A stretch of 17,604 nucleotides of DNA from a virus. Location of the stretch: positions 121,970 to 139,573 of IMG/VR virus record IMGVR_UViG_3300021400_000219; one strand, given 5' to 3'. The notes under the pieces were generated by a model. It made no database searches. It saw only the letters and a list, made by a program, of their open reading frames with translations, and had not been told where the DNA came from. Both the position numbers and the translations under genes were made by a program. This document shows positions 3,537-17,604 of the stretch, piece after piece; the first letter of the stretch is position 1, and each line of letters opens with the position of its first letter.

Positions 3537-3699
3537 AGTATCAATTCCCTTCTTTTTTTTCTTGGGGTTTCTGACCCCCTCAACAATTATTATTATAGCA
3601 GGTTTTTTGAAAATTGCAAGATGGTAAATTGCACAAAATGCGCAGGTAGTTTTTGTGCAAAATGCCGGGGCGCCCGGGCGGGAGTTAGCCGCAGCTAAC

Positions 3700-4398: not shown

Positions 4399-4761
4399 TC
4401 AAATGTCCATGGCCTTGAAGTAGGTGACACGCTTGTCAACATACTTGTCAACCATGCCGTTGAGATACAGGGTGCGGAGCAGACCGCTCACCCGCTGGCT
4501 GGTAGCATCTGCCAGCTCAGGCACCCCAGCGCAAATCTCAGAGATGCGGAAACCCTTGTCCGAATCATCCCGCAGGAAATCCAGAATCTTGGAGCGAATG
4601 GCATCGTTTTCCACCTGCTTGGCGGAAGGCTTGCGCTCAGCCGTGGACTTCTTGGCAAAGCCCTCGGCAATCTTTTCCAGCTTCTCCCGCAGGGCAGTTT
4701 CCTCAGCAGGGACGAAAGTCAGGGCCATCTCAATAGCAGTCTTATTAGTCAGCTTAGTCAT
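4399..4761 (-). CDS. Family A winged-helix-like DNA-binding protein, paralog 2 (120 aa)
   Basis: Start set to the ATG at 4759-4761, preceded by AGTGAGTGATACT; the identical context occurs at paralog 4. Promoter TTGACA-17-TATAAT at 4831-4859, with a second promoter TTGCAA-16-TATAAT at 4961-4988. A strong intrinsic terminator (GGCCCCatgtGGGGCC plus UUUUCCUUUUUCU) follows directly after the TGA. Confidence 0.75.
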   Translation of the reverse strand: MTKLTNKTAIEMALTFVPAEETALREKLEKIAEGFAKKSTAERKPSAKQVENDAIRSKILDFLRDDSDKGFRISEICAGVPELADATSQRVSGLLRTLYLNGMVDKYVDKRVTYFKAMDI

Positions 4762-5037
4762 AGTATCACTCACTTTCTCCGTTTTAACGAGTTCGGCTCT
4801 CAATCTTTTGTTTTCCTTTACTGTACTTGTATTATAGCACAGCTTGGGGAGTTTGTCAAGAGGTTTTGAAAACTTTTTTCGGATTATTTTACACCGACCA
4901 TTAACTCTCAAGGAGTGGCTCTCTTTCGCTCGCCGTCCCCAACCCCTCTTGACATTTATTATTATAGCAGATTTCTCCCAAATTGCAAGATGGGATTTTG
5001 CACAAATTAGATTAACTTCTTTTGGTTAAAATGTCAA

Positions 5038-5066
5038 TAGACAAGCGCATGTTTTTGTGATAAAAT
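5038..5066 (+). promoter_or_regulatory. Plus-strand promoter TAGACA-17-TGaTAAAAT. It fires convergently toward the 3' end of gene 5171..5458 and into GC-rich element A
   Basis: Hexamers and spacing. A TTGCACAA box sits upstream, and a divergent minus promoter (TTGCAA-16-TATAAT at 4961-4988) sits back-to-back with it. Confidence 0.45.
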
Positions 5067-5069
5067 TAG

Positions 5070-5145
5070 TGGGGGGTCTGCGCGCGGCGGCACCGGCCGT
5101 TATCGGGACGCGCGTGTGTGTGCGTGTGTCGCTTTAAAGAGCTAA
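5070..5145 (+). repeat. GC-rich element A, with alternating purine-pyrimidine runs: GCGCGCG...CCGGCCGTTA...CGCGCGTGTGTGTGCGTGTGTCGC...CTTTAAAG..CTAAAG
   Basis: One of five related copies. The others are at about 1085-1215, 10410-10480, 14045-14125 and 16950-17040. Each ends in CCCGGG or the gene-end hairpin. Confidence 0.55.
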
Positions 5146-5170
5146 AGCGCCCGGGAGAGTTAGCGAGGGC

Positions 5171-7439: not shown

Positions 7440-7805
7440 TTACTCCCCCTTCACCTGGAAGCGGCTGACCCGCTTCTCCACAACCTTCTCCACGGTTCCA
7501 GCTTCTACCAGCTGGCGCAGAAGGGCGGAAGCCTGCTGGCTGGAAGAGAGTTCCAGTTCGGCGGCTACTTCCTTCGCCTGCATAGGCTCGTGGTCAGTCA
7601 GCAGTTCAACGATGCGGGCCTTGATACCCTCGTTTTCAATCTGCTTCTTGGTGGGCTTGCGCTCGCCCTTGGACTTGGAAGCGTTCCGCTTCTCATAGCT
7701 GGCCTTGCAAGCAACCAGCTTTTCCATGGCTTCCTCGTTGAAGTCAGCGGGCAGGGAAGCAATAGCCATTTCCAGAGCCTTCACATAAGTCATCTTGTTA
7801 GTCAT
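7440..7805 (-). CDS. Family A winged-helix-like DNA-binding protein, paralog 3 (121 aa)
   Basis: Start set to the ATG at 7803-7805 (GGTAGTGCATACT context). The C-terminus (...VEKRVSRFQVKGE) parallels paralog 1. The stop is in the loop of the AAGGGGGA/TCCCCCTT hairpin. Two tandem promoters at 7880-7908 and 8019-8047. Confidence 0.75.
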   Translation of the reverse strand: MTNKMTYVKALEMAIASLPADFNEEAMEKLVACKASYEKRNASKSKGERKPTKKQIENEGIKARIVELLTDHEPMQAKEVAAELELSSSQQASALLRQLVEAGTVEKVVEKRVSRFQVKGE

Positions 7806-9644: not shown

Positions 9645-10019
9645 TTAAACCCCCTCACCCATGGCCTTGAAATAAGTAATGCGCTTATCTACGTACTTAT
9701 CTACCATTCCGTTCAGGTAGAGCGTCCGCAGAAGTCCGCTCACCCTCTGGGAAGTCGCATCGTTCAGAGCGGGAACACCTGCGCAGATTTCAGAGATACG
9801 GAAACCTCTGTCCACATCTTCCCGCAGGAAATCCAGAATTTCCGCACGGACGGCGTCGTTCTCTGCCTGCTTTGCGCTAGGCTTGCGGGGAGCGGTGTTC
9901 TTCTTAATGGCCTGTTCCTTCATCTTCTCCAGCTTTTCCACAACATCCGTCATGTCAGCGGGAACGTAGGACAGAGCAACTTCCAGAGCCTTAACAGTAG
10001 TCATCTTATTGGTAGCCAT
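9645..10019 (-). CDS. Family A winged-helix-like DNA-binding protein, paralog 4 (124 aa)
   Basis: Start at the ATG at 10017-10019 (AGTGAGTGATACT context). It is almost identical to paralog 2 over the C-terminal 70 aa. The TAA stop is in the loop of the GGGGAGGGGG/CCCCCTCACCC hairpin. Tandem promoters at 10073-10101 and 10225-10253. Confidence 0.75.
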   Translation of the reverse strand: MATNKMTTVKALEVALSYVPADMTDVVEKLEKMKEQAIKKNTAPRKPSAKQAENDAVRAEILDFLREDVDRGFRISEICAGVPALNDATSQRVSGLLRTLYLNGMVDKYVDKRITYFKAMGEGV

Positions 10020-10101: not shown

Positions 10102-10629
10102 AGAGTTTTTTGCAGTTTTTCTGATTTTTTTTGTGAGAACCACGAATGGAAAAAACTCTCAAAAAATTATCGTTTGAAACTCTGTCCCTAGGGCTTTGGG
10201 GCCCCTTGCCCTTTGGACAAGTATAATATAACACATTGGGGCGCGTTTGTCAATACTGATTTGAAAATTTGGGGGCATTCTCTGTTTTGCACAATTTTGA
10301 TGCAAAAATTGCGTCATTTTTGTGCATTTTGACGGCGCGCCCGGGTGAACTACCAATTTCAGGAAAAGCTGGGGTCAAGAGAGAACAAGGAAATTCATTG
10401 AAAAATTTGGTAACGATTTCCAGCGCGCGACACCGGAACCCCTGGGCCGTGTGCGTGTGCGACGGGTGCACGCAGTATTTATTTATACAAGCGGAACTAA
10501 TAGAAAAATCAATTTAAAATATTTATACATATTTATTTATTATTAAGGGTACCGGCGCAATTCTCAAATCAAAAACCTTCCAGGTCTATTTACTTCTGGA
10601 AAATGAAATAAAAATAGGGGCTGATTTAT

Positions 10630-10891: not shown

Positions 10892-11341
10892 TTAAAGACC
10901 TCCCAGAACTTCAAGAATATTATTTACATCATAGGCATTTCCGCCTGCATTATTCCATTCAATTCTATTTCTTTCTTCATCATCAAACAGGATGCCGATT
11001 TCATTTACTACGGTACTTTTGGGGGTGCCATAGGAAACAATTTTCACATCATCAAAATGGACGCTTGCCAGATGTTTTTTTAACCACATCTTTTTTGCTT
11101 CTGTTACAACCTTGTTGTAATCGGGGTTATCTTCCTTAGAGAGCCAAGAGACAACACCAATTTTCCATCCAAGGGCCTGTAACTTGTTCAGCTTGTGGGC
11201 CAGCGCAGAAAGCCGAATCAGGGGTTTTGCGATTTCATAGGGAAGGGGATTTCTCTCAATTAGATAGGAGAGCCAATTTTCCACGCCATACAGATCGGCA
11301 ATAGTCCCATCCATGTCGAAATAAATAGCCTTGTTCATCAT
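10892..11341 (-). CDS. HAD-superfamily hydrolase, 5'(3')-nucleotidase-like, paralog 1 (149 aa)
   Basis: Motif I (IYFDMDGTIADL) and motif IV (GILFDDEE). Start set to the ATG at 11339-11341, downstream of promoter TTGACT-17-TATTAT at 11390-11418. The 30-aa N-terminal extension in the track is translated leader. Confidence 0.7.
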   Translation of the reverse strand: MMNKAIYFDMDGTIADLYGVENWLSYLIERNPLPYEIAKPLIRLSALAHKLNKLQALGWKIGVVSWLSKEDNPDYNKVVTEAKKMWLKKHLASVHFDDVKIVSYGTPKSTVVNEIGILFDDEERNRIEWNNAGGNAYDVNNILEVLGGL

Positions 11342-12490: not shown

Positions 12491-12726
12491 CTGAAGCACT
12501 CCCTTTCCTTAGGATGGTTATAGTATAGCACCATTCCCCGGGATAGTCAATACAAAATCGCAAATTTCCCCTTGTGCAAATTATACAAATGTTGGAGCGG
12601 ATTTTTGGGGGCTGTTGTGCAAGTTGCACAATTAGTGTAACCTGGGTCACATTAAAAGTAACAAAAGAGTTACAATCTCTAACAATCAATTACAATCTTT
12701 TTTTTACTTTCAAAACACTTTTTTTA

Positions 12727-12911
12727 AGTTAGCAGTTAGCAAAGGGTAATGCTAGTTAGCACAAGCTAATTGTTGTTAGTTCGAACTAACTCCGGTTAGC
12801 AGGGACTAACTGGAGTTAGCCTAGGCTAACTTTAGCACACTAAAGCTGTAGCGATTTAGCGAACTAAAGTGCGCCGGACCTGGCAATTTGAACAATTAGC
12901 GGCTGCTAACT
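12727..12911. repeat. Array of eight short palindromes of the GTTAGC-N4-6-GCTAAC or TTTAG-N4-CTAAA type
   Basis: Read directly from the sequence: AGTTAGCAGTTAGCA, TTAGCacaaGCTAA, GTTAGTTCGAACTAAC, GGTTAGcagggaCTAAC, AGTTAGCCTAGGCTAACT, CTTTAGcacaCTAAAG, TTTAGcgaaCTAAA, TTAGCggctGCTAA. The same palindrome type sits at nearly every gene junction. Confidence 0.7.
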
Positions 12912-13169
12912 TTGTGCATTTTGACGAGGTTTCGGGATTCGTCAAGTTGCACAAAAATGTAACCAAATTGTAACCAAAATTTGTGCAATTTGACGGTGGC
13001 GCGAACTCGGCTGCCAACGACTGCGCTGGGCCACAGTGCACTCGTTGGCGGCCGGTTCGTCATTTTGCACAAATGCGTGCGTGCGAGGGGCCTTAACTTT
13101 ATGCATTATGACGAAAAAAAATTTTTGTGCAAAATGACGAATCAAATCCTGATTCGTCAAAATGCACAA

Positions 13170-13463
13170 AAAAAGAGGCATTGCCCGGCCTCATCGGGGG
13201 GAAGCTTGACGCCCTTCCCTGGCGGTGGTGTCCACTTTCGGGGACACGCCCGGCTCCGTTTGCTAGCCGCAGGAGCGTCGCGGCGCTGGGGTCGTTCCCT
13301 TGCCCCTTGGGGAACTTGATGGCCTCCATTTCTATCCCGCGGCCTTGGGGGCGGCCTAGCTACTTTGTGGGGAGTATCGCCCACGTTTCGCCGACGCGGC
13401 TGGGATTTTGGTGTCATCGCGCATCCCGTGCGCTCAAGAGGGACAAGTCAACCTCTTTTCTAT
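13170..13463 (-). ncRNA. Candidate GC-rich structured non-coding RNA of about 290 nt
   Basis: Promoter TTGACA-17-TATAAT at 13470-13498 on the minus strand. Intrinsic terminator GAGGC-N8-GCCUC followed by U7, at 13167-13192 in plus coordinates. GC content is far above the window average. There is no SD site and no conserved ORF. It contains a GTGTCCCC-GAAA-GTGGACAC tetraloop hairpin and a GUGGGCGAUACUCCCCAC hairpin. Confidence 0.45.
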
Positions 13464-13540
13464 GGTCTTATTATAGCACCCGCAAGGGGTTTTGTCAAGG
13501 GTTTTTTCTTTTTTTTTTTTTGTTCCCGGAGGGCCGGGGC

Positions 13541-13759: not shown

Positions 13760-13925
13760 CCTTTTTTTCATTTTTTTTATTTTTTTTTGGTTCCCCATAC
13801 CCCTCCGGGGAACCACTGGCCGGCTATTTTTTACCTCCCGCCCTAGGGGGTGGCCCTTGGTACTTTGTGGGGTATCTTGCCCACGTTTCCCAGAGGGAGG
13901 GCCCGGAGGGTTTCCCCTCCTGACA
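13760..13925 (-). ncRNA. Second GC-rich non-coding segment, a partial paralog of the 13170-13463 RNA
   Basis: It shares about 30 nt with the other RNA (GAAACGUGGGC.AGAUAC.CCCACAAAGUA). It lies downstream of a weaker promoter, TAGACT-17-TATTAT, at about 13930-13960. It ends in the hairpin GGUUCCCC...GGGGAACC, followed by an A-rich run rather than a U-run. Confidence 0.3.
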
Positions 13926-14007
13926 TGATTATAATACCACAGGCCCGGCTAAAAGTCTATTGACAAATCTCACAAATCGGGATGTTCTATTTTGTGCATT
14001 TTTACTC

Positions 14008-14037
14008 TTGACAGCCGAGCCTATTTTGTGGTATAAT
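14008..14037 (+). promoter_or_regulatory. Plus-strand promoter TTGACA-18-TGgTATAAT, transcribing into GC-rich element B
   Basis: Near-consensus hexamers. The conserved upstream sequence GCATTTTTACTCTTGACA is shared with the promoter at 16916. Confidence 0.55.
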
Positions 14038-14138
14038 ATTTCTGTACTGCCTGCGCGCGCGGTCGCCGGCCGTTAGCGGGGGCTAACTGTGCCTGGGTGT
14101 GCGCCTTTATTGCAATAAAGCACTAAAGTGCACAAGGG

Positions 14139-14529: not shown

Positions 14530-14609
14530 TTTTTTTCATTTCCTTTCCTTTTTTCTGTCTTTATTATAGCATCGGCCGGGCGATTTGTCAACCCCTTTTT
14601 TGAAATTTT

Positions 14610-14756
14610 TTAGGGAAATTTATCTCTCCCTAAAAAACAATCCCGCATAAATTCCAACTGTTCCAGAGAAAAGCGGGCCGCAAATTGTGCGGGCGTCTCT
14701 TCAAAGAGATGGTATCCGTTGGCAACCATTTCCATTACAACTTCCAGCTTTTTCAT
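14610..14756 (-). CDS. Small hypothetical protein (48 aa)
   Basis: Internal ATG, preceded by AAAGGAGGAA. Promoter TTGACA-16-TATAAT at 14787-14814. The N-terminal WYNKGTKTKEE in the track is a translated -10 element and leader. Confidence 0.55.
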   Translation of the reverse strand: MKKLEVVMEMVANGYHLFEETPAQFAARFSLEQLEFMRDCFLGRDKFP

Positions 14757-15022
14757 TTTGTGTTCCTCCTTTGTTTTTGTACCTTTATTATACCATACTT
14801 TTGGCAAATGTCAAGACCTTTTTTCAATTTTCTTTTGGTCTTTGCGGGTCCGACCCCCGCACCCTCTGAAGGGCTGTTGTCGGCTTGGAGGTCCTTCCTA
14901 CTGGGACCCCGTCCTTGATTATTATTATAGCAGATAATAGCCAAAAGTCAATTACAAAATGGTTACAATTTTATTTCAGAATGGTTACAATTTGCGCCCG
15001 GGCAAATGGGAAAAAGAGGGAA

Positions 15023-15487
15023 TTACTTCCCTCTCGCCCATGTCAGAACGTCCATAATCATTTCAGGATTGAAGGCCCAACCTTCCATTTCTTCCCACTC
15101 AATCACATTGTTTTCTTCATCGTCAAACAGAATCCCATTTTTCACGGTGGGCACTGTGCTTTTGGGCGTCCCATAGGGAACAATGTTGATTTCATCAAAG
15201 TGAACGCTTGCAAGGTGTTTCTTGAGCCAATTCTTTTTGGCTTCAATAACCTTTTCGTCAAATTCCTTGTTGCTATTCTTAGCTAACCAACTAACTACCC
15301 CGATTGTCCATCCCTTTTTCTGAAGGTTATTCAACCGACGGGCAAGGGCGTTCATGTTTACCAGAGGCTTAGCAACTTCATAGGGGAAGGGATTGTTTTC
15401 CAGTAGATAACCCAGCCAGTTTTCTACGCCGTAGAAGTTGGCGATTGTTCCATCCATGTCAAAGTAGATTGCCCGATTGATTTTCAT
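15023..15487 (-). CDS. HAD-superfamily hydrolase, 5'(3')-nucleotidase-like, paralog 2 (154 aa)
   Basis: IYFDMDGTIANF and GILFDDEE motifs. AAAAGGAG sits 9 nt before the ATG. Promoter TTGACA-16-TATACT at 15519-15546. The TAA stop is in the loop of the GAGGGAA/TTCCCTC hairpin. Confidence 0.75.
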   Translation of the reverse strand: MKINRAIYFDMDGTIANFYGVENWLGYLLENNPFPYEVAKPLVNMNALARRLNNLQKKGWTIGVVSWLAKNSNKEFDEKVIEAKKNWLKKHLASVHFDEINIVPYGTPKSTVPTVKNGILFDDEENNVIEWEEMEGWAFNPEMIMDVLTWARGK

Positions 15488-15590
15488 TTTGTTCAGCTCC
15501 TTTTCTTTTTCTGATTATAGTATACCACAAATTCCGGGATTGTCAAGAGTTTTTTTCAAAAAAATCAAAAAACTTTTTTCAAAAAACCTC

Positions 15591-15619
15591 TTGACAAATT
15601 GAAAAAACTGTGATACAAT
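15591..15619 (+). promoter_or_regulatory. Plus-strand promoter TTGACA-17-TGtGATACAAT, whose transcript starts AAAGGGGGAAUUA followed by U19
   Basis: It sits back-to-back with the minus promoter of HAD gene 2 (15519-15546). The two -35 regions form an inverted repeat, CCTCTTGACAAATT. Confidence 0.55.
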
Positions 15620-15632
15620 AAAGGGGGAATTA

Positions 15633-15651
15633 TTTTTTTTTTTTTTTTTTT
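15633..15651 (+). repeat. Homopolymeric T19 tract at +15 of a plus-strand transcript
   Basis: Counted directly. A second tract, T26, lies at 17475-17500 in the same context. There are also T13 at 13511-13523 and T-runs at 13766-13790. Confidence 0.8.
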
Positions 15652-15705
15652 GGTTAGCTTAGGCTAACTTAGGTTAGTATGTGCTAACTACCCGGGCGCA
15701 AGAAA

Positions 15706-16026
15706 TCAGCCCTTGGGCTGATTCTCGCAAGCCTTTTTATTATTGTTCAGGGTTTTCATTAAAGACTTGGGGCACTTTTCGCAGTTGTGGCAATTCTTGT
15801 AAATGCTGATTCCCTGACTAACAGTTGCGATAAACATTGTTACCAGATTGTTAGTAGTTGCATTGTATACAATCACAATCCCCTTTTCAGTGAGAACAAC
15901 CTTGCCATCGTTGTTGTCGTAGGTTTCTGCGATTGCAGGCCCAAACTCGCCCTTGCAATAGTCGATGATGTAGGAAATTCTTTCCATCCTCTCAACCTTG
16001 GCGTGATAACTGACTTTCTTTGTCAT
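15706..16026 (-). CDS. Hypothetical protein (106 aa) with a C-terminal Cys cluster (CHNCEKC)
   Basis: ATG at 16024-16026, preceded by AAAAGGGG 9 nt upstream. Promoter TTGACA-17-TATACT at 16060-16088. Confidence 0.6.
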   Translation of the reverse strand: MTKKVSYHAKVERMERISYIIDYCKGEFGPAIAETYDNNDGKVVLTEKGIVIVYNATTNNLVTMFIATVSQGISIYKNCHNCEKCPKSLMKTLNNNKKACENQPKG

Positions 16027-16149
16027 TTTTGACAACCCCTTTTCTTATTTTCTGACTAAAGTATAGCACACATTCCCGCAGTTGTCAATACCTTTTTTCA
16101 AATTTTTTCAGATTTTTTTGAACCGGGCGAATGGAAAAAGCTGGAAGTG

Positions 16150-16479
16150 TTACCACTCCCAGCCATCAAACCAACCATCATACCGAACAGAAACAATCTC
16201 ATCGTCATAGATAATGGGGGTATTTCTGTCATACATTACCATTGACACAATGTCACCCACAATCCAGTCACCTTCGCAATCTGTAAAGCACCATTCATTC
16301 CCGTTGAAATCCTTGCAGGTGACAAGTTTGCACTCGTCGTTGATTTCTACTATCACAGTTGTCATTGCATACAGGTTAGCAGTCTTTCCGCTTGCGGCGT
16401 CAGCGTTCACACTTGCGCCGATGCACATACCGCACACCATAACCACCAAAAGAACCATCACACTAATCAGCTTTTTCAT
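16150..16479 (-). CDS. Secreted Cys-rich small protein with an N-terminal Sec signal peptide (109 aa)
   Basis: MKKLISVMVLLVVMVCGMCIGASVNA followed by DAA, which is a typical signal peptide with an AxA cleavage site. AAAGGAGGAAAA sits 6 nt before the ATG. Promoter TTGACA-16-TATAAT at 16510-16537. Confidence 0.7.
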   Translation of the reverse strand: MKKLISVMVLLVVMVCGMCIGASVNADAASGKTANLYAMTTVIVEINDECKLVTCKDFNGNEWCFTDCEGDWIVGDIVSMVMYDRNTPIIYDDEIVSVRYDGWFDGWEW

Positions 16480-16585
16480 TTTGTTTTCCTCCTTTGTTTT
16501 ACTGTAATCATTATACCATACTTTTGGAATTTGTCAAGAGGTTTTTTCAAATTTCCCGGAAAATCTTTTGAGAGGGTTTCCCCTC

Positions 16586-16807
16586 TCAAAAAATGTTTAC
16601 CATTTCAGGCTTTACCATCTCAACAGGAAGGAAACAACCGCTTTTGCAGTAAACTTCTTGTTTCACGTTTCCATCTTTGATAACCAGACGATACACGCCG
16701 CAGGTTCTTCCAGCCGCTTCCATTTTTGCTTGTTTCCAAGCTTTTCCAAAAGCTGCAGTATCCTCAAACTCAAACCCCGCAACCTGATAAACAAACTTCT
16801 TAGCCAT
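16586..16807 (-). CDS. Hypothetical protein (73 aa)
   Basis: AAGGAAAGGGG sits before the ATG. Promoter TAGACA-17-TATAAT at 16840-16868. The TGA stop is inside terminator hairpin TTTTGAGAGGG/CCCTCTCAAAA. Confidence 0.7.
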   Translation of the reverse strand: MAKKFVYQVAGFEFEDTAAFGKAWKQAKMEAAGRTCGVYRLVIKDGNVKQEVYCKSGCFLPVEMVKPEMVNIF

Positions 16808-16915
16808 TTTAATGACCCCTTTCCTTAATTTCTATATTTATTATAGCATCCTGTAAGCTATTTGTCTATTGGTAAATTGCACAAAAAAGTTTTTGATTTT
16901 TGGGCATTTTTACTC

Positions 16916-16944
16916 TTGACATTCGCTGTAAATTGTGGTAAAAT
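16916..16944 (+). promoter_or_regulatory. Plus-strand promoter TTGACA-17-TGgTAAAAT, transcribing into GC-rich element C
   Basis: Hexamers and spacing. An upstream TTGCACAA box lies at about 16877-16884. Confidence 0.55.
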
Positions 16945-17046
16945 AAAATGGGGAGCTGTTGTTCGCGCGCGCCGAAGGCCGTTAGCGGCCGCTAACCGGG
17001 TGTGCGTGTGCGCACCTTTATAGCTTTAATGGGTTAAAGTAACCGG

Positions 17047-17076
17047 GTAAAAAAGAGAAGGACTTTTCAGTCCTTC
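17047..17076 (-). terminator. Intrinsic terminator overlapping the stop codon of 17067..17294
   Basis: GAAGGACU-GAAA-AGUCCUUC followed by UCUUUUUUACC. The stop TGA is in the loop. Confidence 0.65.
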
Positions 17077-17294
17077 ATCCCCATTTCTACGAAAACTTCA
17101 AAGCCTTCAAAGTAGTAAGTCCGCCATTCGCCTTCAAATTCAATTTCTTCCCGCTCCGCCATTTCAGACAGAACTACTTCAACTTCCTGCAAGGCCCGCC
17201 ATTCTGCAGCATCACCATCAAACCGAACTGCTACAACACCATCTTCAAACTCAACCTCAAAAGCTTCCAGCATTTCAAGAATCATTTCTAACAT
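17067..17294 (-). CDS. Small extremely acidic protein (75 aa, about one third E/D), candidate DNA-mimic or anti-restriction-like protein
   Basis: AGAAAGGAAA sits before the ATG. Promoter TTGACT-16-TATACT at 17347-17374. The TGA stop is in the loop of terminator GAAGGACU/AGUCCUUC, followed by UCUUUUUUACC. Confidence 0.7.
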   Translation of the reverse strand: MLEMILEMLEAFEVEFEDGVVAVRFDGDAAEWRALQEVEVVLSEMAEREEIEFEGEWRTYYFEGFEVFVEMGMKD

Positions 17295-17433
17295 TGTTTT
17301 ATTTCCTTTCTGGTTTGTTGGGTTTTCCTTCCCTCTTTCTGATTATAGTATAGCATAAATTCCCGGAAAGTCAAGAGTTTTTTACAGAAAAGTTGTACAA
17401 ATGCCGCACACATTTTTTGTACAGTTTGTCTAT

Positions 17434-17462
17434 TGACTTTTTTCTCTTGGATGTGATACAAT
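17434..17462 (+). promoter_or_regulatory. Plus-strand promoter TTGACT-17-TGtGATACAAT, whose transcript starts GAAGGGGGAUUC followed by U26
   Basis: Paralogous to the promoter at 15591. A TTGTACAA palindrome box lies between it and the divergent minus promoter at 17347-17374. Confidence 0.55.
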
Positions 17463-17604
17463 GAAGGGGGATTCTTTTTTTTTTTTTTTTTTTTTTTTTA
17501 AAGGGTTGCGCAAACCAACCCTCCGGGGAAAAGAGAAAAGGATTTTTCACCCTTTTTCTCCATCCCCATTACGTTTTAAAAGTTTTTGCCACTTTACATA
17601 ATAC

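Follow-up and report, generated by a model that had tools for sequence, protein, structure and literature searches.

An early-gene array with five reverse-facing promoters

The window analyzed here, a 17,604-nt stretch of viral DNA (positions 121,970 to 139,573 of IMG/VR record IMGVR_UViG_3300021400_000219), contains ~36 small genes, exclusively minus-strand, almost all of which have a near-consensus sigma-70/sigma-A promoter of their own, with a TG-extended −10 element and an A/T-rich upstream region. The subject of this report is a set of five promoters that face the opposite way, on the plus strand, each back to back with the promoter of a gene cassette, together with the long, length-variable T-tracts into which two of them lead. 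A consensus scan finds 87 promoter-like sites in the window, compared with 32 expected, and a stricter score finds 36 strong promoters on the minus strand and 5 on the plus strand, compared with 0.15 ± 0.38 per strand in 100 dinucleotide shuffles. Exact-protein look-ups find the array on metagenome sequences of 136-174 kb, where it adjoins structural genes; the closest cultured relatives of one window protein, at 41% amino-acid identity, are Enterococcus Herelleviridae; and megablast found no DNA-level match to the window among 50,697 phage records. We conclude that the window is an early gene array of the host-takeover type, from an uncultured gut phage of ~136-174 kb, and that the host of this phage is probably a member of the Firmicutes.

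All five plus-strand promoters have a TG-extended −10 element, and the distance from −35 element to −35 element within a pair is 43-58 bp. The initial annotation had placed five back-to-back pairs at these positions, and the strict scan bears this out. The five bidirectional units, in which "box" denotes the TTGYRCAA-type motif discussed below, are:

4961-5066, unit 1, minus-strand promoter: −10 element 4961-4966; −35 element TTGCAA 4983-4988; box TTGTGCAA (minus strand) 4998-5005, 9 bp upstream
Unit 1, plus-strand promoter: degenerate box TTGGTTAA 5022-5029; N8; −35 element TAGACA 5038-5043; N17; −10 element TAAAAT 5061-5066
13928-14037, unit 2, minus-strand promoter: −10 element 13931-13936; −35 element TAGACT 13954-13959; 8-bp gap; degenerate box TTGTGAGA (minus strand) 13968-13975
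Unit 2, plus-strand promoter: box TTGTGCAT 13992-13999; N8; TTGACA 14008-14013; N18; TATAAT 14032-14037 (12/12 consensus)
15517-15619, unit 3 (T19), minus-strand promoter: −10 element 15519-15524; −35 element 15541-15546
Unit 3, plus-strand promoter: TTGACA 15591-15596; N17; TACAAT 15614-15619
16840-16944, unit 4, minus-strand promoter: −10 element 16840-16845; −35 element TAGACA 16863-16868; 8-bp gap; box 16877-16884
Unit 4, plus-strand promoter: degenerate box TTGGGCAT 16900-16907; N8; TTGACA 16916-16921; N17; TAAAAT 16939-16944
17347-17462, unit 5 (T25), minus-strand promoter: −10 element 17347-17352; −35 element 17369-17374; TTGTACAA 17393-17400
Unit 5, plus-strand promoter: TTGTACAG 17417-17424; N8; TTGACT 17433-17438; N18; TACAAT 17457-17462

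In the T19 unit, for which a 14-bp inverted repeat had been described, the repeat is larger, with 24-nt arms (15540-15563 and 15574-15597; 92% complementary) that comprise the −35 hexamers and A/T-rich UP-like regions. Unit 4 has mirror arms of 25 nt (16863-16887 and 16897-16921), and unit 5 has box-containing arms at 17386-17401 and 17416-17431. The units at 15591 and 17433 are paralogous, as the initial annotation held for their plus-strand promoters, and the paralogy covers the whole intergenic region. Unit 1 has an ortholog of 95% identity in the relative L023 and partial copies in L024 and L052.

The reverse arm of each of the five units is aimed at the upstream minus-strand cassette, the 3′ flank of which it would enter. 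By position and orientation, the plus-strand promoters would thus yield, as had been proposed, a non-coding transcript antisense to the upstream cassette; that of the T19 unit is antisense to gene 15706-16026. No plus-strand open reading frame (ORF) with a ribosome-binding site and start codon was found 3′ of the T19 and T25 promoters, and no plus-strand terminator-like site was found within 200 nt of the plus-strand promoters of the window. A coding role for the plus-strand transcript was considered and rejected: AAGGGGGA resembles a Shine-Dalgarno sequence but has no ATG, GTG, or TTG at the right spacing, and the plus-strand ORFs of the window are antisense to well-supported genes and have no ribosome-binding sites. 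A type I toxin-antitoxin arrangement was likewise rejected, since the convergent genes encode non-hydrophobic proteins. The results support the conclusion that the plus-strand promoters and the gene promoters form one class, and that the plus-strand promoters occur far beyond chance and are conserved in strain variants and in relatives.

Length-variable T-tracts at a fixed position after reverse promoters

The plus-strand promoters of units 3 and 5 lead, within a few nucleotides, into G-runs and then into homopolymeric T-tracts. The first tract has the 19 T reported in the initial annotation, but the second has 25 rather than the reported 26. The tracts and their surroundings are:

15620-15651, plus strand: AAAGGGGGAATTA, then T19 (15633-15651), which is A19 on the gene strand
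15653-15696: two TTAGC-N4-GCTAA-type palindromes (15654-15667 and 15674-15687) and CCCGGG (15691-15696), which together delimit the upstream cassette (gene 15706-16026) on its 3′ side
17463-17521, plus strand: GAAGGGGGATTC, then T25 (17475-17499), then the hairpin GGGTTG-CGCAAAC-CAACCC, at the position of which the assembly L009 has GGTTAGC-GCAA-GCTAACC
13508-13520, plus strand: T13, which is A13 on the gene strand, 10 nt upstream of the −35 element of the minus-strand promoter at 13498, with no reverse promoter

The order of elements in the module is constant: reverse −35 element, N17, TG-extended −10 element, 3-4 nt, G4-6, 1-5 nt, T(n), 0-8 nt, palindrome or hairpin. Two copies are in the window, and further copies are present in strain variants, at a locus c (L104, L109, and L111) and at a hub locus d (L107, L108, and L110), and in the relatives L033 (T12) and L023 (GGGGGGC-T7). 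The palindrome that follows the T-run is of the TTAGC type in every copy save the T25 copy of the window. On the assumption that transcription starts 6-8 nt after the −10 element, the start is predicted to lie in the G-run and the T-run to begin at about +6 to +9.

The initial annotation proposed that the tracts are hypermutable in length, and comparison of tract lengths among assemblies confirms this:

T19 locus: 19, 20, 17, 23, 26, 19, 15, 13, 12, 10, 13, 22, and 16 nt, in 13 independent assemblies with near-identical flanks
T25 locus: 25 nt (window), 30 nt (L009/L101), and at least 24 nt (L102)
Locus c: 22, 17, and 15 nt
Locus d: 14, 12, 13, and 12 nt
Promoter-proximal A-tract at 13508: 13-20 nt

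Length polymorphism among near-identical genomes, which is characteristic of contingency homopolymers, is therefore observed at five loci. In the T19 unit, the hexamers of both promoters are invariant in 13/13 assemblies; the spacer, the G-run (4-6 nt), and the T-run vary. Over 12.4 kb, the window differs from L009, L010, or L011 in tract lengths only. In L009 there are no substitutions to the left of the T25 tract, and identity is ~70% directly to the right of it. Three or four assemblies break at tracts, L102 being bounded by two of them, and an exact-pattern search for the module, at which assemblies tend to break, gave 0 matches in IMG/VR and 0 in the JGI metagenomes. Every tract of at least 12 nt in the window, the strain variants, and the relatives reads A on the gene strand. 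In the T19 and T25 units the tract follows the reverse −10 element, ~85-100 bp from the forward −35 element, and is not inside an ORF or a promoter spacer, as a contingency homopolymer would. A role of the tract as an intrinsic terminator was considered and rejected: read on the plus strand, the T-run comes ahead of the hairpin, and read on the minus strand, the residues after the hairpin are A, so that neither order fits.

The strain variants L104-L113, compared with window positions 14600-15500, share the T19 unit but differ in the cassettes downstream of it. In L108 the 5′ untranslated region (UTR) of gene 15023-15487 is fused directly to ORF 14610-14756, and in L107 an unrelated 71-aa gene is present. 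The breakpoints of the cassette swaps in L107 and L108 lie at the forward promoter or 5′ UTR.

The TTGYRCAA box is a directional upstream promoter element

According to the initial annotation, each promoter pair would contain a palindromic TTGYRCAA box that serves both promoters as a shared operator. The enrichment of the motif stands (17 copies in the window, compared with 1.9 expected), but its presence in every pair does not: an exact TTGYRCAA is found in only 3/5 pairs (4998, 16877, and 17393), the pair at 13930-14037 has only the degenerate TTGTGCAT and TCTCACAA (13968), and the T19 pair has no box at all. Nor are the boxes in general palindromic; TTGTGCAA and TTGCACAA are reverse complements of each other and non-palindromic, and TTGTACAA alone is palindromic. 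TTGYRCAA is also found at promoters that have no plus-strand partner (3629/3653, 4302, and 11443/11452), including an inverted pair at 3629/3653 that resembles those of the boxed units yet is accompanied by no plus-strand promoter, and it is dense in non-coding DNA at 12570-13170.

To define the position of the box, we pooled the window and non-redundant relatives, which together have 975 strong promoters on the gene strand and 45 on the opposite one. Where its orientation matches that of the promoter, exact TTGTGCAA peaks at two distances upstream of the −35 element, namely 8-9 bp, with 17 cases, and 19 bp, with 9; TTGTGCAA in the reverse orientation shows no such peak in the same pool. In the boxed pairs of the window, each promoter has one copy at an offset of 8-9 bp, the two copies, some of them degenerate, facing each other ~24 bp apart. 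We conclude that the box is a directional upstream promoter element, of which each promoter has its own copy. The finding that the boxes are mirror-symmetric, one per promoter and at a fixed offset, argues for co-regulation of both arms rather than for a shared operator that would choose between them.

The 8-mer TTGTGCAA is the core of a 15-nt motif, TTGTGCAWWWTGACG, the long form of which occurs nine times in the window, mostly as inverted pairs, and is present in 27 relatives. A non-coding hub at 12570-13175 contains three inverted TTGTGCAWWWTGACG pairs (12912-13170) and an array of TTAGC palindromes (12730-12830), and two 17-bp palindromes of the TTGTGCAA-N-TTGCACAA type lie near it. This hub could be a regulatory center or an origin. 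The 1-kb hub region (window 12570-13175 and 10285-10335) also has TGTAACC repeats and GC-rich hairpins, and an orthologous region is present in L033.

Four 120-aa paralogues encoded in the window (genes 1714-2082, 4399-4761, 7440-7805, and 9645-10019) resemble, weakly, winged-helix regulators of the MarR type. A forward box lies upstream of 23/49 winged-helix genes of the g8/g22 type, compared with 0/21 of the g2/g17 type (Fisher p = 5e-5, uncorrected for relatedness). The best reading of these observations is that the box would be a half-site for a sequence-specific regulator, and a protein of the g8/g22 type plausibly regulates its own gene through it.

Reverse non-coding promoters recur in relatives

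Relatives were retrieved by means of the winged-helix paralogues, giving 583 kb of related metagenome loci. They share the architecture of the window, each 20 kb containing 20-36 strong promoters on the gene strand and as many as 22 CCCGGG sites. Of the 989 strong promoters in this set, 948 follow the direction of the genes and only 41 oppose it. The 40 distinct promoters of the opposite strand include some that serve ordinary divergent genes at array edges; ~18 of the 40 have a common non-coding layout, comprising a TTGTGCAA-like box, 8 (or ~20) bp, TTGAC(A/T), N17, and TGnTATAAT, followed by GGAAnTTYC and a GC-rich hairpin. No ORF follows the promoter in any of these ~18 cases, and the first terminator-like site after the reverse promoters of the relatives lies at a median of ~800 nt. 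We conclude that the feature is more widespread than the single window: reverse non-coding promoters recur in relatives.

The hairpins of the relatives have a mean fold z-score of −1.6, and 12/18 copies form a single strong hairpin. As judged by eye from individual folds, the stems differ from copy to copy (CGGCCC/GGGCCG, CTGGCCGAGC/GCTCGGCCAG, and CGTGGCGC/GCGCCACG), and the hairpin sequences differ even inside single genomes (L018, L077, and L086). MAFFT/RNAalifold gave no consensus for these hairpins, the loop lengths of which differ. The variation in hairpin length and sequence within one genome argues against mimicry of CRISPR repeats (an RNA anti-CRISPR). In relatives from rumen and gut, we observe a family that consists of a perfect-consensus reverse promoter, GGAAnUUYC, a variable-stem GC hairpin, and a GUCAA-like tail (on the opposite strand, for example L083 8379-8448, L077 2506-2575, and L086 109-178), and that has no Rfam match. 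Compensation by reverse promoters for absent terminators was not apparent: in a small sample of 9 paired cases, 4 have an upstream terminator-like site, compared with 21% overall.

The other three plus-strand promoters of the window lead, as the initial annotation stated, into GC-rich elements, which consist of alternating purine-pyrimidine sequence and are positioned like the hairpins of the relatives:

5072-5150, plus strand, element 1: alternating (CG)n and (TG/CG)n runs and CCGGCCGTTATCGG; fold z-score +0.4 to +0.5, no better than shuffles; 3 differences from the orthologous L023 element
14043-14110, plus strand, element 2: includes the palindrome TTAGCGGGGGCTAA; fold z-score +0.5 to +1.3
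16950-17020, plus strand, element 4: CGCGCGCGC, GGCCGTTAGCGGCCGCTAACC, and GTGTGCGTGTGCGCAC; fold z-score −0.7 to −1.1

With fold z-scores near zero, a structured RNA family was rejected as an account of these window elements. Alternating runs of the Z-DNA-like type were considered as what the GC-rich elements have in common, but in the relatives such runs are mostly inside coding sequence.

Other features of the array

The junctions between cassettes have a 3′ hairpin, often a TTAGC-N4-GCTAA palindrome, followed by GCCCGGGC. The two commonest junction elements of the window are:

TTAGC-N4-GCTAA palindromes: 1235, 1675, 3685, 7402, 8644, 12736-12909 (with the array at 12730-12830), 14073, 15654, and 16982
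(G/A)CCCGGG(C/T) palindromes: 19-22 sites, for example 1664, 2303, 5700, 6095, 7023, 8097, 9221, 14996, and 15690

TTAGC-N4-GCTAA is present in 18 copies, compared with 0.6 expected, with conserved stems and variable loops. There is a weak hint that these palindromes may act as RNA hairpins in the gene-strand transcript. In the strain variants L108 and L110, two TTAGC palindromes are altered, with G-U pairing retained on the gene strand only. CCCGGGY gives 40 strand-matches in the window, compared with 3 expected, and the (G/A)CCCGGG(C/T) palindrome lies after the 3′ hairpin and ahead of the upstream region of the next promoter at almost every junction. The CCCGGG palindrome is kept in many relatives (13-22 per 20 kb) and is nearly absent in some (L018).

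Other motifs occupy similar upstream positions to the box, including TGGAA-N5-9-TTCCA (6077, 6109, 6614, 8611, and 9203), and GGTTACA is found on the plus strand (TGTAACC repeats on the gene strand) at 2282/2293, 2668, 7013, and 14961/14983. The different upstream motifs suggest that the array may comprise several regulons, possibly one per winged-helix paralogue. Long GC-rich leaders that follow some of the promoters (13340-13400 and 13860-13900, minus strand; L023 2337-2399 and 2724-2787) share the repeated motif GAAACGTGGGC.ATAC.CCCACAAAGTA. An island at 500-930, with 22% GC, several TTGATT-N17-TATAAT promoter-like sites, and no convincing ORF, is unlike the rest of the window in composition.

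Few window proteins are recognizable, namely an exonuclease-like protein (by PHROG), two NT5C-like deoxyribonucleotidase paralogues, and the four winged-helix paralogues; a Pfam search with ten window proteins gave no match, and PHROG matches were weak or unrelated. The two NT5C-like paralogues, 10892-11341 and 15023-15487, share one early array. Gene 15023-15487, the forward partner of the T19 unit, which encodes the deoxyribonucleotidase-like protein (PHROG 2643/NT5C), is driven by that unit; the promoter of gene 10892-11341 adjoins a TTGTGCAA-A-TTGCACAA palindrome and has no reverse promoter. A tRNA scan of the window found none, and an Rfam search of the window gave nothing near threshold, with sub-threshold matches only (RAGATH-28, E = 0.15). 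On the gene strand of its array, L023 has two above-threshold matches to type II hammerhead ribozymes.

A possible antisense throttle, and alternatives

We tentatively favor, with somewhat less than even confidence, a composite reading in which the reverse promoters are active antisense promoters and the T-run is a slippage-prone, length-variable throttle on their output. According to this proposal, which is built from sequence comparison, the promoter region would have been duplicated in mirror image at a few junctions, giving quasi-palindromic bidirectional units, the reverse promoter of which would fire an early non-coding transcript toward the upstream cassette, convergent with the 3′ end of that cassette and antisense to it. 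TTGTGCAA would be the half-site of the longer operator TTGTGCAWWWTGACG, arrayed in the non-coding hub, and a box-binding factor, probably phage-encoded, would regulate both arms of a pair together. The best candidate for this factor is the g8/g22 subfamily of the four winged-helix paralogues, which is predicted to bind TTGTGCAA-N16-TTGCACAA and TTGTGCAAAATGACG; the g2/g17 subfamily is predicted not to bind them. The T-run would be a hotspot for replication slippage. RNA polymerase slips on runs of at least nine A or T, and rU:dA is the weakest hybrid and a poor former of R-loops. On a 10-30-nt all-rU:dA hybrid near the start, RNA polymerase would be expected to slip and to escape poorly, so that tract length would set the amount of antisense RNA. 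Since no canonical terminator follows the reverse promoters, their product, if they are active, would be antisense RNA rather than a neatly terminated small RNA. In most relatives the 5′ GC hairpin may stabilize the antisense RNA, by analogy with the 5′ stabilizer stem-loops of Firmicutes. An extension of this proposal, which we regard as improbable, is that the module is a phage contingency device, in which replication slippage would diversify the output of antisense or poly-U-headed RNA at each junction and would bet-hedge early-gene dosage or, alternatively, reiterative transcription would provide a readout of the nucleotide pool, the A44 tract of phage SPO1 (described below) being a relic or variant of the same principle.

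Several observations weigh against the throttle. Promoter activity is predicted from the consensus alone, and the convergent target genes share nothing obvious. Homopolymer lengths from short reads carry error, though the range of 10-26 nt at the T19 locus far exceeds typical error. The three GC-rich elements of the window fold no better than shuffles (z-scores of −1.1 to +1.3), and similar GC-rich elements are found without a reverse promoter (window 10395-10480 and its L033 ortholog; L070). The association of the box with one type of winged-helix protein is confounded by shared ancestry and synteny. A-tracts lie upstream of forward promoters that have no reverse promoter (window 13508, L083, L094, and L098), and a same-orientation A-tract, again without a reverse promoter, lies in a 5′ UTR (L034); the analogous tract in SPO1 relatives ranges from 45 nt to absent and is thus dispensable there. 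Because long A-tracts also occur without a reverse promoter, the T-tract may act on DNA or be neutral.

It is accordingly possible, although in our view rather unlikely, that the A/T tract is a DNA-level or neutral feature, such as a slippage microsatellite that possibly serves the forward promoters as an insulator, as a recombination boundary, or as a far-upstream element of rigid or curved DNA, and that the reverse promoter is an incidental by-product of palindromic promoter duplication. The uniform A orientation on the gene strand of all tracts of at least 12 nt would be expected on this account, as would the position of several tracts 10-11 nt upstream of a forward −35 element (window 13508, L083, L094, and L098), the SPO1 A44 tract without a reverse promoter and its T13 and T10 counterparts in two relatives and absence from three, the fall of L009 identity to ~70% exactly at the T25 tract, and the breaking of three or four assemblies at the tracts. 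However, the tract is fixed 11-13 nt after the reverse −10 element at four paralogous loci and in L023 and L033, always between the G-run and the palindrome or hairpin; the reverse hexamers are invariant across 13 assemblies; and the T19 and T25 tracts, ~85-100 bp from the forward −35 element, are too distant to serve as an UP element. A replication origin or recombination initiator activated by transcription, in which an easily unwound element comes after a promoter, as in T4 oriF/oriG or the T7 primary origin, would account for the G-cluster and the 19-25-bp dA:dT stretch that immediately follow a strong promoter and for the coincidence of a tract with a mosaic junction; we consider it very unlikely indeed, given at least four copies within a few kb, the poor R-loop formation expected of rU:dA hybrids, which are the least stable, and a run of only T7 in L023.

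The reading of the initial annotation, in which a shared operator would toggle between a cassette gene and a decoy or antisense transcript and the T-tract promoters would sense uridine triphosphate (UTP) through reiterative transcription, as in pyrBI, codBA, and upp, appears to us quite doubtful. The homopolymer ~10 nt from a consensus promoter and preceded by a G-run, the slippage expected of RNA polymerase on at least nine T, the resemblance of GGGGGGC-T7 in L023 to the GGGC start of pyrG, and the deoxyribonucleotidase-like product of the T19 forward partner would suit UTP sensing. The toggle is contradicted by the directional boxes, one per promoter, and by the boxless T19 unit, and UTP sensing by the absence of a downstream plus-strand ORF or attenuator, by a predicted tract start at +6 to +9 with an unconstrained length of 7-30 nt (modules with T7 and T12 being included), by forward partners in other modules that are unrelated genes or non-coding DNA, and by a second NT5C paralogue (10892-11341) that has no reverse promoter. 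Nothing ties the T-tracts to UTP sensing beyond the physical likelihood of slippage. We rate as equally doubtful the proposal that the products are trans-acting small RNAs, which might be structured GC-hairpin RNAs, or else RNAs with a poly-U head that would titrate an RNA-guided defense or an RNA-binding protein of the host. Near-perfect consensus promoters and, in the relatives, the conserved leader GGAAnUUYC with a variable-stem GC hairpin (mean z-score −1.6; single and strong in 12/18) are in its favor, and Herelleviridae show highly transcribed regions without ribosome-binding sites (PMC12282133). Against it are the lack of a canonical terminator that would delimit a small RNA, the differences among hairpins within one genome (L018, L077, and L086), the lack of a fold signal in the GC-rich elements of the window, and the lack of an Rfam match.

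Little is understood of the early regions through which large Firmicutes phages take over the host, and views of how these regions are regulated come mostly by inference from SPO1. The locus analyzed here supplies the directional element TTGTGCAA with a candidate regulator family, and a conserved class of reverse non-coding promoters. Among natural samples, no site of the region varies more than the T-run directly after a consensus promoter. SPO1 has a parallel tract, for which its GenBank record has given no explanation since 1998. If tract length tunes antisense output, the T-run would be a rare case of contingency-type variation in the regulatory DNA of a virulent phage; if it does not, such tracts still warn of broken metagenome assemblies and mark mosaic junctions.

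Comparison with known systems

The locus combines features of known kinds, namely phage early promoter cassettes, antisense promoters, and contingency-type homopolymers. In having a promoter 3′ of a gene aimed back at the 3′ end of that gene, the reverse arms resemble those of lambda oop and P22 sar; the oop type, however, makes a short RNA defined by a terminator, whereas the window has no terminator within 200 nt. In having back-to-back promoters with regulator sites between them, the units resemble the phi29 A2b/A2c-A3 promoters with their p4 sites, but the paired promoters of the window are of the same sigma-A class, the boxes are symmetric, the reverse arm is geneless, and there is no sign of a temporal switch.

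Reiterative control, in Escherichia coli pyrBI, codBA, and upp and in Bacillus subtilis pyrG, involves runs of 3-8 nt that start at +2 to +4, and governs a gene farther along the same strand. Common to those systems and to the window modules are a homopolymer early in the transcript of a strong promoter and the physical expectation of slippage; here, in contrast, the run is 10-30 nt, its predicted start is +6 to +9, no gene lies downstream, and its length varies freely. With bacterial contingency tracts the window shares homopolymer length as the main or only difference among identical genomes, but its tract lies neither in an ORF nor between −35 and −10 elements.

The PeSL cassettes of T4-type phages are units of a strong sigma-70-like promoter and a stem-loop that flank small non-essential genes, and related genomes differ by cassette insertion, deletion, and replacement with junctions in the repeats (PMC2839356). 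The window likewise has promoter and stem-loop repeats, and cassette replacement in L107, L108, and L009 has junctions in repeats. The phage lineage and host type differ, the window cassettes have extra conserved motifs, and mirror-image promoters and homopolymer tracts are outside the PeSL description (PMC2839356). We conclude that the window cassettes are an analogue, and not a member, of the PeSL group, because the closest cultured relatives are Herelleviridae-like Enterococcus phages and not T4-type phages.

A close architectural likeness is to the host-takeover module of SPO1, which lies in the terminal redundancy and the organization of which has been summarized for Herelleviridae (PMC7414437): both SPO1 and the window have dense small early genes, with a strong sigma-A promoter and a terminator for each gene or operon. 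The likeness is one of architecture, no protein homology to gp37-60 having been established. In this module SPO1 has a T44/45 homopolymer (FJ230960 = L100, 11399-11442), A44 on the gene strand, between the terminators TL2.5A/B and the promoter PE10, which the 1998 GenBank record labels [quoted passage not shown]. Among the Okubovirus relatives (L114-L119), the tract is T13 in Goe2 and T10 in SPO1L5 and is absent in CampHawk, SP82G, and SP8. Repeats of the CTTTTAAAAG type flank the SPO1 homopolymer. Unlike the T19 and T25 tracts of the window, the SPO1 tract has no adjoining reverse promoter, but palindromes of the CTTTAAAG type surround the tract in both. Because relatives and SPO1 carry same-orientation A-tracts, long unstable dA:dT runs appear to be a recurring property of such early regions, and their coupling to a reverse promoter would be a lineage-specific elaboration.

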